From: an uncultured Clostridia bacterium
Lineage (GTDB): Bacteria > Bacillota > Clostridia > TANB77 > CAG-508
NCBI GenBank assembly: GCA_944387445.1
Contig: CALXEX010000002.1
Coordinates: 28,290 to 92,289 of the forward strand
Length of the DNA: 64,000 bases
Direction: 5' to 3'
Shown: positions 3,140 to 57,331 of the stretch, in pieces
Layout: every line of letters begins with the position of its first letter
Position numbering within the stretch: position 1 is the first letter of the stretch
Position numbers and translations under genes: made by a program
Notes under the pieces: generated by a model
The model's database searches: none
Seen by the model: only the letters and a program-made list of their open reading frames with translations
What the model was told of the DNA's origin: nothing

Positions 3140-3216
3140 TGGTGCTCCCTCAAGGATTCGAACCTTGGACCCACCGGTTATGAGCCGGTTGCTCTGACCA
3201 ACTGAGCTAAGGGAGC
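3140..3216 (-). tRNA. tRNA with CAT anticodon (elongator Met or lysidine-modified Ile2)
   Basis: The reverse complement reads GCTCCCTTAGCTCAGTTGGTCAGAGCAACCGGCTCATAACCGGTGGGTCCAAGGTTCGAATCCTTGAGGGAGCACCA, a full cloverleaf. The G1-C72 pair argues against an initiator tRNA. Confidence 0.85.
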
Positions 3217-3277: not shown

Positions 3278-3380
3278 GACATTTTTCCAAATTCCTATAA
3301 TTTTTAAGTCACAATGTAAGTTTCAGTATACTCACGAAAGGAGCTAGTTTTCATCCTAACTCCTTTTCATTTACTTCTTT

Positions 3381-6950: not shown

Positions 6951-7068
6951 TTTCTAAACATCCTTTCAACACGATATATCAATAGCTATATTATATATGT
7001 AAACATAGAATATTGCAATATTTTTTTGAGGTTTTATACCACTTGTTCAAACATTTCATTTTTGATAT

Positions 7069-7266
7069 CCCCTGTATAAGTTGTTATCATTTATAAATCA
7101 CCTGTTACGAATGTGATTGGAAAGCATACTAGAAAATTTTATTTAAAATAAATGAAGGAACCCGAATCCTTTTGGGGAGTGTCATTTATTTTAAATTAGA
7201 TTTTCTGTATGCTTGTATTAAGCCGAGTAACAGGTAATTTATAAATGATAACAACTTGTACAGGGG
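7069..7266. repeat. Rod-like hairpin element, copy A (see findings)
   Basis: 40-bp outer arms (2 mismatches), then 5' junction GAATGTGATTGGAA, a ~32-bp inner stem, a 26-nt apical loop and 3' junction TGTATTAAGCCGA. Confidence 0.7.
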
Positions 7267-7281
7267 CTAAGCAAAATCAAT

Positions 7282-25749: not shown

Positions 25750-26029
25750 TTTTTCTTCCTCCTTTATTTTAGGCTACTAACAGTTGTACAAAGAAAAACA
25801 GGCTAAAGAAACAGCCTCAGTTTATATATGAGGTGCTTACTTGCACCTATTTTTCAATGTACTGCAACCACTTTGGTTTGCACAGACTATATTATACCAC
25901 TTTCCTATAAGCTTTTCAAATTTTTTATCTAGGACTTGCTTATTTTTTCATTTTAGTATAATATAATAAAAGTAAATTAAACGTATGCAAAAAAATTCTT
26001 AAGAAAGGAGGGCAATATTTTATTCATAT

Positions 26030-26165
26030 ATAGCGCCTGGACACGATAGATTTGTGTTGACGAGGTTCAGGGTTATCGAAAAATTCGGCGGATGCTCTGA
26101 TGGCTTTCACTTATGGTCATAAGTATTAATGAAAAAGCAGTAGTGATACTGTAACAAAGGTTAAT
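26030..26165 (+). ncRNA. glmS ribozyme (GlcN6P-dependent self-cleaving leader)
   Basis: A^GCGCCTGGAC ... TTGACGAGGTTCAGGGTTATCGAAAAATTCGGCGGATGCTCTGATGGC matches the conserved glmS ribozyme core. Lies about 130 nt upstream of glmS. Confidence 0.85.
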
Positions 26166-26297
26166 ACATATAAGTTTTATTTGCATACCTTTAATTCCAA
26201 CAATCTCTTGTATCTTAGAGATATTATCAAAATTTAGCAAAAATAATTTAATATATTTATTTGTATATATTAAATTATTGAAATGGAGGATTATATT

Positions 26298-29736: not shown

Positions 29737-29821
29737 AACTTTCCTCCTCGCCTTTTGCCATAATAGTATATTCCATTATCTTGCTTTTTATACTATCATT
29801 TTGTCCTATTGACCTTTTATT

Positions 29822-30082
29822 GTTACAGTTCACAGCTTAATCAATCCCCCTAGAGGCTTATGTTCTTCTAGATTGAATAAAATTTCGAATGTGATTGGAA
29901 AATAATTAGAAACTCTTGAATCATTTTATGGAAAATGTTCGCGTCGAGCGTAGCGAGGACTAAGTGAAAGGGTGCCATAAAATGATTTTAGAGTTTCTTA
30001 TTATTTGTATTGAGCCGAGAAATTTATGAAATCTAGAAAAACATAAGCCTCTAGGGGGATTGATTAAGCTGTGAATTGTAAC
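29822..30082. repeat. Rod-like hairpin element, copy C
   Basis: ~63-bp outer arms, the same junction strings (GAATGTGATTGGAA / TGTATTGAGCCGA), a different ~31-bp inner stem and a 43-nt apical loop. Flanked by the direct repeat CCTTTTATTG. Confidence 0.7.
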
Positions 30083-30189
30083 CCTTTTATTGAACAAAGT
30101 TAAATTATTTTAGCCAAAAGTCTTGTTTTTTTCGCTATTTTGTAGGATAATATATATGTATGATTATAAATTTTGAAAGGATATTTTAA

Positions 30190-32517
30190 ATGAAGCTAAT
30201 TGATAAATTTTTAAAGAAATTGAATATCAACAGAAATACTTTTGCAACATATATCTTAACTTTGTTAACAGTATATTTAGCTGTAGATAGAATTGTTGAA
30301 ATGCTTCTTATGATTTTTACAGGTGTATCTTACTCATATTGGGGACCTATTCAATATACCTTAGCTTTGGCTTGTCCAATTTTCGCATTTCTATTTTCAG
30401 GAAAATCTGAATTCGCCACTTCCAATATGAAAAAGGTTGCTATATTTTATGTATATGTCATTGGATTATATATCATTGCTGTTTCGATGTTCACCCAATG
30501 GCTAAACATGGGGGCTTGGTTATTATTATTATCTGTTCCTAATTACGTAGAATTAATTACGGATTTTTCTGACATTGTAAAACCAGCTTTTATTAGTATT
30601 TCACTTTATTTACCATTAGTGACAATATTCCCACTATTCAAATGGTTATATATGGGTATTAATGACAACTTGGATCAAATCCGTTCTATTTGGGATTATC
30701 CTGGAATTGATTTATCTGATCCTAAAAAGGATAGAGGTGCATATACTTGTGAAGTCTTTTTATGTACAGATCATGATTATGGTACAGTCATTACCATTCC
30801 TGAATCTTCTAGATATTTATCTTTATTTGTATGTGGTGGTTCTGGAACAGGAAAAACATCTTTAGTATTTGAACCAATGATTGCTAGAGATATTGAGAAA
30901 AAATACTTTTTTAGAGAAGTTTCAAAAGAAATGGGATTTACAGCACTAAAAACAGGTATTGCTCATTTGAAAAGACCTTATGATAATGATTATCTAAATG
31001 AAAACTTTAAATTAGAAATGCTTGCTCCTAATGCTGGAAAAGAAGCTGTTTATAATGGATATATGAAAAAAATGATTCTAGGAACACTAGATGGTGAAAA
31101 TGTATATAGAAATTTAGGATTAGAAATCATGTCTCCAGATTATGAATTACTTGATCATATGACACAAGTTTGTGATAATTATGGATTTAAATATAACATG
31201 ATTGATCCATCAAATCCTAATTCAATGGGATTAAATCCTTTTGTATATGATGAACCTTCAAAAATAGCAGTTACTATCTCTTCTGCTTTAAAATCTATGT
31301 ATAATAATGCACATGAAGAAGTAGAAGATGCCTATAGAGAAGACTTTATCATTCAAGCAATCGAAAATTTAGCTATTTTACTAAAAGAAATGTATCCTAG
31401 AATGAACGAAGGTGCTCTTCCTAATATGGAAGATATGCTAAAAATGTTCACCAATTTTGAATTGATAGAAAAGATGTGTGAAATATTAGCACATGATGAA
31501 GAATTAAAAGAAAAATATGCTATACAACTTGCATATTTTAGAAAATGTTTCTATAAAAACGGATCTGCTAGAGAACAAACAGAAAAAGATATTTATGCAG
31601 CTGTTACACAATTAGATAATCTTTTAAGATTACCTGGTGTCAAATCTATCTTATGTAATCGATTTAATAATATAGATTTTGATAAAGCACTTGCAAATGG
31701 TGAAATTACTTTTATATGTACAAGACGTGGTGATTTAGGATCATCAACACATCAAGCATTTGGACTATTCTTCTTAATATCAATGCAAAATGCAGTTTTA
31801 AGAAGACCAGGTGGAGAAAATTCAAGAGTTCCTAATTTCTTATATGTTGATGAATTCCCTGACTTTATTTGTAAAGCAACAGAAGCTATTTTTACAATGT
31901 ATAGAAAATATCGTGTTGGAACCATCATTTCTGCTCAAAACTTAGCACAATTAGAAACACCAAAATCTAGAGAAAATTATAAAAATACTATTTTATCAAA
32001 CTGTGCAAACAAAGTCTTTACAGGAAATGCAGAAATAAGTGAACTAAAATGGTGGTGTGACGAATTTGGTCAACACAGGGAATGGACTTACAAAGTTGAT
32101 TTTGACACCGAGAAGACACAATATGCACCTAAATATGGTGATGCAAAATGGGCATATGTCTATTATTTCACACCTGGTAAATTACAATCAATGCTAACAA
32201 ATAAATTATGTGCTTTTAAAGTTAGAGATCTCAACGGGAAACCACTAGTTGGACCTGGTAGATTTAACTACTTAGAATCTAAATATAAAGAAAAACAAAA
32301 AATCAAAGCTTATGATTTTGGTAAATATTCTGATGGTGTCACAACCTCTACAGAAGATGACACTTCATCTAAAAAGAAATTTGATTTAAAAAATCTAGAT
32401 TTCAAAGATGAAAGAGATGAAATTAATCCAGTACAAACAGACAATACAGATTCTAAATATTTATTTGATAATGATGATGCTGTTGTTATCAATTTCAAAA
32501 GAAACGAAAAGAAATAA
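30190..32517 (+). CDS. Membrane-anchored P-loop ATPase, TraG/TraD/VirD4 (type IV coupling protein)-like
   Basis: About 5 N-terminal TM helices, Walker A CGGSGTGKTS, Walker B FLYVDEFPDF, then YRKYRVGTIISAQNLAQL (TraG-D_C-like). Confidence 0.6.
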   Translation: MKLIDKFLKKLNINRNTFATYILTLLTVYLAVDRIVEMLLMIFTGVSYSYWGPIQYTLALACPIFAFLFSGKSEFATSNMKKVAIFYVYVIGLYIIAVSMFTQWLNMGAWLLLLSVPNYVELITDFSDIVKPAFISISLYLPLVTIFPLFKWLYMGINDNLDQIRSIWDYPGIDLSDPKKDRGAYTCEVFLCTDHDYGTVITIPESSRYLSLFVCGGSGTGKTSLVFEPMIARDIEKKYFFREVSKEMGFTALKTGIAHLKRPYDNDYLNENFKLEMLAPNAGKEAVYNGYMKKMILGTLDGENVYRNLGLEIMSPDYELLDHMTQVCDNYGFKYNMIDPSNPNSMGLNPFVYDEPSKIAVTISSALKSMYNNAHEEVEDAYREDFIIQAIENLAILLKEMYPRMNEGALPNMEDMLKMFTNFELIEKMCEILAHDEELKEKYAIQLAYFRKCFYKNGSAREQTEKDIYAAVTQLDNLLRLPGVKSILCNRFNNIDFDKALANGEITFICTRRGDLGSSTHQAFGLFFLISMQNAVLRRPGGENSRVPNFLYVDEFPDFICKATEAIFTMYRKYRVGTIISAQNLAQLETPKSRENYKNTILSNCANKVFTGNAEISELKWWCDEFGQHREWTYKVDFDTEKTQYAPKYGDAKWAYVYYFTPGKLQSMLTNKLCAFKVRDLNGKPLVGPGRFNYLESKYKEKQKIKAYDFGKYSDGVTTSTEDDTSSKKKFDLKNLDFKDERDEINPVQTDNTDSKYLFDNDDAVVINFKRNEKK

Positions 32518-51425: not shown

Positions 51426-51510
51426 ATTATCACTTCTCCTTCATTGGTAAATATAACATTATGAGTTTCATTTGTCAATACATTTTTTTACATAATAGTA
51501 AAAATTAAGT

Positions 51511-51731
51511 TTTTTCTTCATCCTATGTGCCAGTCAGAGGTATTTCTAAACTATTTCATTACGAATGTGATTGGAAAGCATATTAGAAAATTTTATTTAA
51601 AATAAATGAAGGAACCCGAATCCTTTTGGGGAGTGTCATTTATTTTAAATTAGATTTTCTATATGCTTGTATTGAACCGAGTAATAAATAGTTTAGGAAT
51701 ACCTCTGACTGGCACATAGGATGAAGAAAAA
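51511..51731. repeat. Rod-like hairpin element, copy B
   Basis: ~50-bp outer arms unrelated to those of copy A. The inner core is nearly identical to copy A. Confidence 0.7.
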
Positions 51732-51736
51732 CTTCA

Positions 51737-57217: not shown

Positions 57218-57331
57218 CATGTATTTTGCCATTAATATATTTTATGTAAAATGAAAGAAGATGGTGTATCTATCACACTATTACAACTAACCCCTGAATA
57301 TATTCAGGGGTTAGTTGTAATGCATATTATT

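Follow-up and report, generated by a model that had tools for sequence, protein, structure and literature searches.

The three long hairpins in the window, the 64,000-nt stretch of DNA from an uncultured Clostridia bacterium analysed here, probably belong to a new IS66-type MITE family of uncultured gut Clostridia whose structured core is under selection, probably at the RNA level. We assign this reading a probability of roughly 60%. It combines transposon-like ends, with an exact empty site for one of the copies, and a centre that covaries, evolves slowly and shows a strand-specific wobble signature.

Architecture of the three hairpin loci

Three rod-like hairpins, all on the + strand, lie at 7069-7266 (copy A), 29822-30082 (copy B) and 51511-51731 (copy C), dispersed among unrelated housekeeping genes. 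The elements measure 198-261 nt and share a core of 118-132 nt. The conserved junctions described in the initial annotation were found in all three copies. At the 5' side, GAATGTGATTGGAAA is exact at 7109, 29887 and 51563, with no further site in the window at up to one mismatch, and at the 3' side TGTATTGAGCCGAG occurs, allowing one mismatch, at 7214, 30006 and 51668. The long outer stems were likewise recovered, as inverted repeats of 39 bp (A), 63 bp at 92% (B) and 46 bp at 98% (C), the repeat of copy A being extendable to 54 bp at 87%, and the inner stems found comprise 25-32 bp and are 91-92% paired. The outer arms of A, B and C are indeed unrelated within the window, since their likeness to each other is no greater than that of shuffled sequence. 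What had been taken for a plain apical loop is itself a structured region, which comes in three types. A covariance model built on 61 distinct cores detected no fourth copy in the window.

The minus-strand gene starts lie 119 (A), 86 (B) and 86 nt (C) from the elements, in line with the distances first reported. Copies A and C lie directly against the stop codon of the minus-strand gene that precedes them, with the host promoters in the interval separating the element from the downstream gene. When the three loci were scanned for promoters and terminators, nothing above chance was detected inside the elements, which are without a U-tract terminator. No ORF of at least 40 aa was present within copy A, and none of at least 60 aa within copy B or C. 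Small peptides encoded in the core on either strand were considered and rejected, since the short ORFs, inspected by eye, are conserved neither in length nor in sequence between core types.

Copy A, with weaker pairing out to 7055-7280, has a predicted fold of -101.6 kcal/mol compared to -34.4 +/- 4.3 for shuffles (z = -15.7). Its left outer arm (7069-7107) pairs with its right outer arm (7228-7266) with 2 mismatches in 39 positions. Enclosed between them are the 5' junction loop CGAATGTGATTGGAAA (7108-7123), conserved in the 61-core alignment, the inner stem and apical domain (7124-7213; stem 7131-7155 with 7182-7206, apical domain 7156-7181) and the 3' junction loop TGTATTAAGCCGAG (7214-7227), placed by the junction match and the core alignment. 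In copies found without the search pattern, CGAATG of the 5' junction is kept and the interior is variable. Copy B folds at -137.5 kcal/mol (z = -18.4). Its core (29886-30019), the best match to covariance model R1 (144 bits), runs from the 5' junction (29886-29901) to the 3' junction (30006-30019), and its inner stem pairs 29900-29931 with 29975-30006 around an apical domain at 29932-29974. The core of copy C (51562-51681) is bounded by its junctions at 51562-51577 and 51668-51681, with an inner stem that pairs 51584-51609 with 51636-51661. The cores of copies A and C differ at 4 of 118 positions, two of which make up a compensatory change of a C-G to a U-A pair.

The earlier statement that the core matches no known consensus was borne out, as no Rfam family (4227 models, release 15) reached its gathering score on the elements; at this threshold, the whole window gave only glmS and one tRNA. 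In E-value mode, applied to copy B and four loci, the matches were only to plant microRNA-precursor and similar long-hairpin models, far under threshold at 51.5 bits against a cut-off of 139.7 bits. A literature search for the junction sequence and for Clostridial, IS66 and ISBst12 MITEs found nothing relevant, and the sequence matches were to unrelated primers. Phages and plasmids, against which the initial annotation had suggested comparing the outer arms, gave no match either in a scan of phage and viral contigs with the core pattern and the terminal repeat or in a plasmid BLAST with copy B. An integron attC site was rejected because it requires RYYYAAC ... GTTRRRY, along with an integrase and gene cassettes close by, whereas the ends found here, GTTAC...GTAAC, have the opposite arrangement and the copies are dispersed. 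The K-turn, hairpin-ribozyme loops, the plasmid single-strand-origin motif (TAGCGA), parS and IHF sites were also compared by eye and set aside, the fit being inconsistent across subfamilies.

Transposon termini and insertion history

Copy B is a complete 261-nt MITE (29822-30082, GTTACAG...TTGTAAC), as delimited by alignment of empty and filled strains. The first ~16 nt of its left arm (29822-29884) are the IS66-type terminal inverted repeat GTTACAGTTCACAGCT, its right arm (30020-30082) ends in the terminal inverted repeat ...AGCTGTGAATTGTAAC, and the inverted repeats GTTACAGTTCACAG and GTTACAATTCACAG stand at opposite ends of the element. It is flanked by two copies of the target-site duplication CCTTTTATT, of which the left one (29813-29821) is identical to the right one (30083-30091), the latter being identified by empty-site comparison. 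An exact empty site was observed in four strain contigs (L067, L068, L069 and L074), where the duplication sequence occurs once. The filled allele, present in two, including L071, differs from it by a 261-nt insertion and the 9-bp duplication AATAAAAGG. The insertion of copy B is recent, and strains differ in whether they carry it. Its arm type recurs in other genomes and at other loci with a conserved terminus, GTTAC(A/T)(A/G)TTCA(C/G)AG, and 14-15 of the 16 positions of its terminal repeat are identical to the termini of the transposase-encoding elements in L213, L119 and L204. The initial annotation had held that these hairpins are not a MITE, and had named arms that prove to be conserved MITE terminal repeats as the finding that would speak against it. 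Precisely this was obtained for the copy B arm type, and the terminal repeats, the 9-bp duplication, the empty site and the termini shared with IS66-transposase elements overturn that part of the claim.

The core was found at 66 genome loci in ~25 MAGs, with ~20 copies in one MAG (CAYVCM01), and every copy is intergenic. The covariance model gave 87 matches over the core-bearing loci and the window, a few of these being reverse-strand echoes of the same copies. Several copies lie at or near contig ends (L001, L020, L021). Complete copies of ~240-270 nt are non-coding and are inserted at AT-rich intergenic sites with an 8-9-bp target-site duplication. With the element ends fixed at GTT..., the flanking 8-mers were identical at 7 or more of 8 positions in 11 of the 20 distinct copies that bear these termini (6 perfectly), compared to 1 of 80 controls.

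Scanning metagenomes for the terminal repeat yielded small elements of 64-302 nt, of which 13 are flanked by perfect 8-bp duplications, and five elements of 1.8-2.8 kb with the terminal repeat at both ends. The three of these five that were ORF-listed contain one ORF each, of 514-558 aa, matching Pfam DDE_Tnp_IS66 (PF03050) with E values of 3e-14 to 9e-22. The elements in L213 (240-2046), L119 (24-1831) and L204 (3539-5600) carry GTTACTATTCACAG(C/T)TAAT at both ends, and an IS66-type transposase adjoins the terminal repeat in seven loci by tblastn, including L141, L183, L197 and L211. The full-length transposase elements recovered showed no clear target duplications. An IS6-family origin, considered for the likeness of GGTTTCTGTTCAGAC to GGTTCTGTTGCAAAGT, was set aside because IS66-type transposases adjoin the exact repeat. 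The initial annotation had reported no transposase in the window; for the IS66 type, the one type checked, tblastn indeed found none there, nor in the 66 core-bearing loci (L001-L066). We infer that an IS66-family transposase of this kind moves the MITEs in trans. Since the core covariance model had no match in the 100 loci searched among the 120 metagenome loci with the terminal repeat, the core is not a general companion of this repeat.

Copy C (~223-225 nt, 51510-51732) has a decayed terminus, GTTTTTTCTTCATCC, which agrees at 10 of 14 positions with GTTTCTGTTCAGAC, the terminus of L056-type copies. Compared with sister species it is an insertion, as four of them lack it (spacer of 78 nt versus 311 nt). 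The outgroup target reads ...GAAAATTAA followed by TTTTTAC, and each copy of a putative target duplication matches it at 7 of 8 positions. Most strains carry a short allele at this locus, from which ~172-174 nt (51527-51698) are missing, namely the inner arms together with the core and a single copy of a 16-nt segment of arm sequence; L077, L080, L081 and L084 retain only TTTTTCTTCATCCTAT(A/G)TGCCAGTCAGAGGTAT joined to ATAGGATGAA. The 16-nt segment is continuous with arm sequence at another L029 locus, so that a deletion is favoured. Copy C is an older member of the family, with a decayed terminus and an internal deletion in most strains.

Copy A has no recognisable IS66-type terminus, and no target duplication was detected around it. 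All 10 recovered strain contigs carry it, and so do L002 and L029, from two further species, at the orthologous locus, so that three species share it; the more distant relative L232 lacks it and has a spacer of 88 nt. Copy A is an old insertion, an older family member with a decayed terminus. In its L002 orthologue the arms are mismatched. Given these arms and the deletion of copy C in most strains, neither the core nor the outer stem is indispensable at every locus.

Conservation of the core and drift of the arms

The core combines a pair of asymmetric junction loops with an inner stem that covaries and contains a conserved U.U mismatch, and with an apical domain rich in purines. In the inner stem, 92.6% of cells pair, compared to 68.9% for shuffled and 35-56% for slid partners, cells changed on both sides number 301 compared to 111 in shuffled data, and compensatory changes occur in 17 of 22 pairs; the copies counted are related and not independent, and covariation can also arise in DNA palindromes. 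Across eight orthologous pairs, core divergence was 0-0.068 compared to 0.085-0.30 at four-fold degenerate sites, roughly 4-20 times lower, a difference to which gene conversion among paralogues could partly contribute. Outside the 26 core positions fixed by the search pattern, ~22 changes were observed where ~139 were expected, about six times fewer. For copy A and its L029 orthologue, 5 of 118 core positions are changed, with four-fold sites at 0.29. Moreover, on the + strand G.U outnumbers A.C mismatches by 45 to 7 in the inner stem, compared to 36 to 60 in the arms, the number of wobble events being smaller than these counts because copies share ancestry. The + strand fold was more stable than that of the opposite strand in 63 of 68 copies. 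The core is under purifying selection in resident copies, with G.U tolerated on the + strand only.

A centre of ~120 nt that is nearly unchanged between species probably has a function of its own. The reading of the conserved loops as a functional structure stands for the centre, in view of its covariation, slow evolution and + strand wobble; it fails where it was set against a MITE. On this view, the core would act as a + strand RNA in folded form, which the MITE carries and the host has retained, and would most likely serve as a protein-binding platform at gene boundaries. The elements have no internal promoter above chance. Of the copies that lie between co-directional genes, about two thirds are antisense to these genes (27 antisense versus 12; ~24 versus 12 without orthologues), so that the + strand RNA has no evident source. 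More tentatively, the core may represent a structured module, of RNA or single-stranded DNA, that has not been described before and has a specific molecular partner; IS66-type MITEs would have spread it through gut Clostridia, and the host would have kept it at many gene boundaries.

The arms diverge by ~40% between species, yet remain complementary. Between copy A and L029, 14-16 of 37-38 arm positions differ, the L029 arm being itself self-complementary, and each of the two has only 2-3 internal arm mismatches. Mirrored differences of this kind were also observed in L043/L064, L014/L056 and L057/L060, and arm sequence changes at about the neutral rate or faster. The kept complementarity, together with the lack of strand bias in the wobble pairs of the arms, points to a process at the DNA level, for example template switching across the palindrome that corrects one arm to match its partner, or selection for the DNA hairpin.

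A purely selfish MITE could also produce such arms. The core would then be conserved through recent spread, gene conversion and pattern ascertainment, and the stems through template switching. We regard this reading as doubtful, although it fits the clear transposon hallmarks, the recent arrival of copy B and the loss of copy C from most strains, as well as the absence of a promoter inside the elements and their weakly biased orientation relative to neighbouring genes. The arms, complementary without strand bias, indeed argue that a symmetrising process exists at the DNA level. However, under such a process neither the asymmetric junction loops nor the U.U mismatch and apical domain should have survived, and all of these persist across subfamilies. 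The wobble bias is confined to the core, the deficit of core changes extends over eight interspecies orthologous pairs, and copies A and C keep an intact core despite their decayed termini. These observations favour an IS66-type MITE with a selected core.

Other modes of spread and known intergenic repeats

In a bolder version, the core itself is mobile and targets the tips of DNA hairpins, which would explain nesting, the unrelated arms and the alleles at the copy C locus. The core would be a module landing in palindrome centres (terminator hairpins or arm-only mini-MITEs), and the arms would be target DNA, possibly an inverted target duplication. The same core does occur within unrelated arms, and the terminal repeat also encloses other cores (L049:1897-2092, L062:5157-5353) or almost nothing (64-92-nt elements, and a ~70-nt mini-MITE in L225). 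In L035 and L024, whole elements are nested in inverted orientation within the apical loop of a related hairpin, the short allele at the copy C locus is a plain hairpin to which the full allele adds the core and an inverted copy of the 16-nt segment, and the two junction loops look like imperfect direct repeats and vary in parallel. We nevertheless consider this unlikely. The empty site of copy B indicates that arms and core arrived as one unit, with a direct duplication, and within genomes, different loci combine the core with the same arms. B-type arms were not found on their own, and the 16-nt segment at the copy C locus favours deletion. No enzyme for such a reaction is encoded nearby, and we know of none that would place a core in palindrome centres.

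The view first taken of these loci, that they are immobile chromosomal structured-RNA genes or DNA regulatory sites whose long stems are merely structural, is very improbable. The covariation and purifying selection of the core, the lack of an Rfam match and the retention of copy A across three species agree with it. It is contradicted for copies B and C by differences in presence between strains or sister species, and more generally by target-site duplications, exact empty sites, terminal repeats common to transposase-bearing elements and up to ~20 copies per genome. REPINs, which make no target duplication, depend on a Y1 transposase and keep their arms symmetric while the sequence drifts, resemble the present elements in hairpin shape and mirrored arm change, but doublets of this type moved by a RAYT (IS200/IS605-type, single-strand) transposase are hardly credible here, since 8-9-bp direct duplications and DDE-type terminal repeats are not products of single-strand Y1 transposition.

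The preferred reading, an IS66-type MITE with a selected core, can be compared with several known systems. Like IS66-family MITEs of the single-ORF, ISBst12-like group, the elements are short and non-coding, with terminal repeats that match those of elements encoding a DDE_Tnp_IS66 protein at 14-15 of 16 positions, and they show insertion polymorphism, as observed for copy B. The target duplication of IS66 is 8-9 bp, a length shared by the present elements and also seen in dozens of small elements with the present repeat. Unlike typical IS66-type MITEs, they are nearly full palindromes with arms extending 40-75 bp beyond the ~16-nt terminal repeat, their centre and not their ends is best conserved, and a partner transposase was detected solely in other organisms of the metagenomes.

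The Correia/NEMIS repeats of Neisseria and the ERIC repeats of enterobacteria are intergenic, hairpin-forming and MITE-like, measure ~100-150 nt and are co-transcribed with neighbouring genes; Correia elements are reported to have an internal IHF site, promoters and RNase III targets, and ERIC elements to be conserved at orthologous loci. The likeness to the present family lies in being intergenic hairpin MITE-like repeats with conserved or functional internal parts. It does not extend to the sequence, the terminal repeats or the duplication (TA for Correia), and what sets the present centre apart is its pair of large asymmetric loops and a wobble signature specific to one strand. BOX and RUP of Streptococcus pneumoniae and the bcr1-type repeats of the Bacillus cereus group are modular intergenic repeats of Firmicutes, predicted to form stable hairpins as RNA; in some of them, compensatory changes have been reported. 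Their sequences and presumed transposases differ from those of the present family, none has the CGAATG...CCGAG internal loop, and mobility is here directly shown by empty sites. With the structured RNAs in Rfam, the core has in common its conserved loops and covarying stems.

The elements offer a well-bounded case, in uncultured gut Clostridia, of a transposon-borne hairpin that is probably more than filler, one element family showing both fresh transposition, with an exact empty site, and long-term purifying selection on its centre. With their arms, the elements also provide natural material for studying how symmetry is maintained in long DNA palindromes during sequence drift. For annotation, such repeats can break MAG assemblies and may be mistaken for terminators or small RNA genes. 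Should the core prove to be a functional RNA, current RNA libraries would gain a missing family, and the elements would illustrate how MITEs can supply many gene boundaries at once with ready-made RNA modules for regulation or protein binding.

Three hairpin insertions in the window

The initial annotation had described three loci of common architecture, and the junctions, inverted repeats and inner stems were indeed all recovered at copies A (7069-7266), B (29822-30082) and C (51510-51732) on the + strand. A pattern search of the window located the 5' junction GAATGTGATTGGAAA exactly at 7109, 29887 and 51563, with no further site at up to 1 mismatch, and the 3' junction at 7214, 30006 and 51668 with at most 1 mismatch. 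The inverted repeats around the cores (the central 118 to 132 nt, from junction to junction) measured 39 bp in A (54 bp at 87% if extended), 63 bp in B and 46 bp in C, and each core contained an inner stem of 25 to 32 bp. Single-strand folds reached -101.6 kcal/mol (z = -15.7) for copy A and -137.5 kcal/mol (z = -18.4) for copy B, and in 63 of 68 copies the + strand gave the more stable RNA fold. The arms of A, B and C were no more similar to each other than shuffled sequence, in agreement with the annotation, and a covariance model of the core detected no fourth copy in the window.

Copy B is a recent insertion. Among contigs encoding an identical adjoining DUF2508 protein, the spacer was 183 nt long in four strain contigs versus 453 nt in the window and in one further locus (L071). 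In the alignment of strain contigs, the empty site reads ...CAATAAAAGG directly followed by TCAATAGG..., and the filled site reads ...AATAAAAGG, then the element (GTTACAAT...261 nt...CTGTAAC), then AATAAAAGGTCAATAGG.... The insertion is exact and has duplicated 9 bp, or 8 bp when one terminal A is counted as element. Copy B sits between the DUF2508 gene and a divergent gene for a 775-aa protein at 30190-32517 (+), in whose product the precomputed Pfam annotation of an identical protein places a TraG-D_C (coupling-protein-like) domain. The divergent promoter region of these genes is occupied by copy B in some strains only.

Copy C is an insertion that has been partly deleted in the present population. 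Three strain contigs agree with the window here. In most strains the spacer is 137 nt long, and the ~174 nt missing from it comprise the core, the inner arms and one copy of a 16-nt arm segment. Four sister species, whose neighbouring protein is 86-93% identical, have only a 78-nt spacer with the target ...GAAAATTAA/TTTTTAC, and copy C is therefore an insertion of ~225 nt. It probably made an 8-bp duplication, each duplicate now matching the target at 7 of 8 positions; its end has decayed (GTTTTTCTTCATCC). The short allele is most simply explained by a later internal deletion.

Copy A is an old insertion common to three species, being present in all 10 strain contigs recovered and at the orthologous site in two further species (L002 and L029), and absent in a more distant relative (L232) with an 88-nt spacer. 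Between the 229-aa gene and TetR, the spacer is a landing pad, with small hairpin insertions that differ between species (L225:720-800, L235:740-812 and L228:560-790), including a ~70-nt IS66-type mini-MITE, a 71-nt hairpin and others, and a bare 88-nt spacer in one species. The mini-MITE has a terminus of like type and the duplication AACTAATT. In the chicken-gut MAG locus L002 (302-441 plus flanks), the left arm is of the window type, the right arm is of the L029 type, and the outer stem is largely unpaired (21 bp). The locus reflects either natural recombination through the conserved core or chimeric assembly of two strains.

All copies are intergenic. A and C start 2-6 nt past the stop codon of the preceding minus-strand gene, and the TetR and XRE promoters (TTGCAA-17-TATAAT and TTGACA-17-TATATT, respectively) lie between element and downstream gene. 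Scans of the three loci revealed no promoter or U-tract terminator above chance inside the elements. Between co-directional genes, 27 copies were antisense and 12 sense (~24 versus 12 without orthologues), a weak orientation bias. The window also contains a perfect 42-nt intergenic palindrome at 57280-57321 (ATTACAACTAACCCCTGAATA/TATTCAGGGGTTAGTTGTAAT), with an outer end loosely like the GTTACAAT terminus and no flanking direct repeat, which could be an arm-only MITE remnant or a bidirectional terminator. A glmS ribozyme/riboswitch at 26021-26177 (+) scored 94.7 bits over the full model and is followed downstream by a GATase/SIS (glmS-like) gene, observed in related loci; a tRNA gene at 3143-3216 (-) scored 73.3 bits.

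An IS66-type MITE family

A 24-base core pattern, run once against 185,579 species genomes, matched 66 loci in ~25 MAGs, all labelled uncultured Clostridia, Clostridium, Eubacteriales or Bacillota and derived from human, chicken, rabbit and goat gut, with up to ~20 copies in one MAG. Comparison of the left flank of each copy with the reverse complement of its own right flank revealed self-complementary arms in every copy. The arm type of copy B was found again at unrelated loci and in other genomes, with the common outer end GTTAC(A/T)(A/G)TTCA(C/G)AG or GGTTTCTGTTCAGAC adjoining a variable G-rich stretch mirrored between the arms. With ends fixed at the GTT... termini, the flanking 8-mers shared at least 7 positions in 11 of 20 distinct copies (6 perfect), compared to 1 of 80 offset controls. 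The initial annotation had held that the hairpins were not MITEs; the target duplications, the exact empty site and the termini held in common with IS66-transposase elements show instead that the core-bearing elements are an IS66-type MITE family. Two further elements (L049:1897-2092 and L062:5157-5353, the latter within a perfect 8-bp duplication, ATAAAAGT) have GTTACA(A/G)TTCA(C/G)AG termini as in copy B and duplications, with quite different rod-like interiors that each have their own asymmetric loops and no Rfam match. Since these interiors differ entirely from the core, identical transposon ends carry several unrelated hairpin centres.

One metagenome scan with the terminal repeat returned at least 120 loci, many of them probably chance matches. 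Among the matches listed, ~28 elements measured 64-302 nt and had GTTAC(T/A)ATTCACAG as their boundaries, with perfect 8-bp duplications around 13, and five elements of 1.8-2.8 kb had the terminal repeat at both ends. The three long elements examined for ORFs each had a single one, of 514-558 aa, matching Pfam DDE_Tnp_IS66 (E = 3e-14 to 9e-22; n = 3); a zf-IS66 match in one was below threshold (24.3 bits versus a cut-off of 27.3). By tblastn, an IS66 transposase adjoins the terminal repeat in 7 loci, including the remaining two long elements. The same search detected no IS66-type transposase in the core-bearing loci or in the window, so for this type the annotated absence of a transposase from the window holds. 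IS66-family elements make 8-bp duplications, a length also shown directly by the elements here, and ISBst12-group elements carry one transposase gene only. The core-bearing MITEs would be mobilised in trans by an IS66-family transposase such as those seen in other metagenomes.

The core model matched none of 100 terminal-repeat metagenome loci searched, and we conclude that the terminal repeat is widespread and the core confined to one clade. Two abundant MITE families in fermentation, gut and other metagenomes (30-47% GC), one of 183 nt (e.g., L098, L112, L143, L163 and L198) and one of ~268-270 nt (e.g., L100, L101, L134, L149 and L160), have the common terminal repeat GTTACTATTCACAG and often perfect 8-bp duplications; MITE families relying on the IS66-type repeat are therefore numerous well outside the clade of the core.

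Conservation of the core and symmetry of the arms

The alignment of 61 distinct cores comprised two junction loops, an inner stem in which a nearly invariant UUAGA adjoins a conserved U.U mismatch, and a purine-rich apical domain of three types with a variable hairpin slot. RNAalifold predicted 22 pairs, 17 with compensatory double changes. Inner-stem cells paired in 92.6% of cases, versus 68.9% after shuffling and 35-56% with slid partners, and cells changed on both sides numbered 301 versus 111 after shuffling. Because 26 positions were fixed by the search pattern, copies found by the covariance model alone were also inspected; these kept CGAATG...GGAA and ...CCGAG, with variable loop interiors.

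The strongest evidence that the core is not filler is its rate of change. In orthologous copies identified by shared flanks, core versus four-fold-site divergence was 0.017 versus 0.158 (L012/L017), 0.000 versus 0.085 (L012/L027), 0.068 versus 0.303 (L014/L056), 0.009 versus 0.163 (L016/L044), 0.008 versus 0.104 (L043/L064), 0.008 versus 0.166 (L057/L060), 0.015 versus 0.105 (L030/L058), 0.008 versus 0.150 (L029/L002) and 0.042 versus 0.29 (window/L029). Outside the pattern-fixed positions, ~22 core changes were observed in these pairs, versus ~139 expected at the four-fold rate. Inner-stem mismatches were G.U on the + strand rather than would-be G.U on the - strand by 45 to 7, versus 36 to 60 in the outer arms, counts that are inflated by the shared ancestry of copies; even so, mutation bias can hardly account for this contrast between core and arms of single elements. 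The annotated reading as a functional structure thus stands for the core, with its covariation, low divergence and strand bias. We infer that the central module works as a folded + strand RNA that probably binds a protein, and that it would have been kept at gene boundaries once the termini had decayed.

For the arms, an RNA constraint is not favoured, as they lack a + strand wobble bias, which argues for a DNA-level process. Upstream of TetR, 14-16 of 37-38 arm positions distinguish copy A from L029, and within each copy the arms mismatch at only 2-3 positions. The arms of L043 and L064 have mirrored differences, including an indel; L014 versus L056 and L057 versus L060 have single mirrored substitutions, plus unmirrored ones. 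The arms are thus free to change in sequence, but their complementarity is actively maintained. Template switching in palindromes is an established process, and we favour either arm-to-arm correction by this route or selection on a DNA hairpin.

Nested hairpins and relation to known elements

In a minority reading, the core would itself insert into the centres of palindromes. Its junction loops look like imperfect direct repeats (TGTGATTGG / TGT-ATTGAG) and change in parallel in one subfamily (TGCAAATGG / TGC-AATGCA), and whole elements lie inverted in the apical slot of related hairpins; these features keep the reading alive beside that of IS66-type MITEs. The nested cases (L035:1592-2064 and L024:730-1142) are 410-470-nt hairpins with a complete core-bearing element inside a related outer element, whose ends are of the GTTACAGGTCAC type and whose junction, GTTTGATTGGAATGA, has diverged; for the L035 region the fold reached -189.7 kcal/mol (z = -15.8). 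Two MAGs have a different inverted repeat, GATGTTTTTGGGGACGGACTCAAAAAACATCA, around the core-bearing elements at several loci (L030, L058 and L059; e.g., L059:3040-3071 with 3310-3341), pointing to a further layer of nested palindromic repeats.

No Rfam family matched the elements (window, copy B and other loci searched), as the annotation had anticipated in finding no known family; phage contigs and plasmids gave no match, and a literature search on the sequence found nothing relevant. Hairpin MITEs with internal functional or conserved parts are known, such as Correia, ERIC, BOX and bcr1, and we therefore rank the family within this known kind. Its unusual feature is the inverted conservation pattern, with a conserved centre and free ends, and it would gain in interest should the core turn out to be a functional RNA or a mobile module that targets hairpins.
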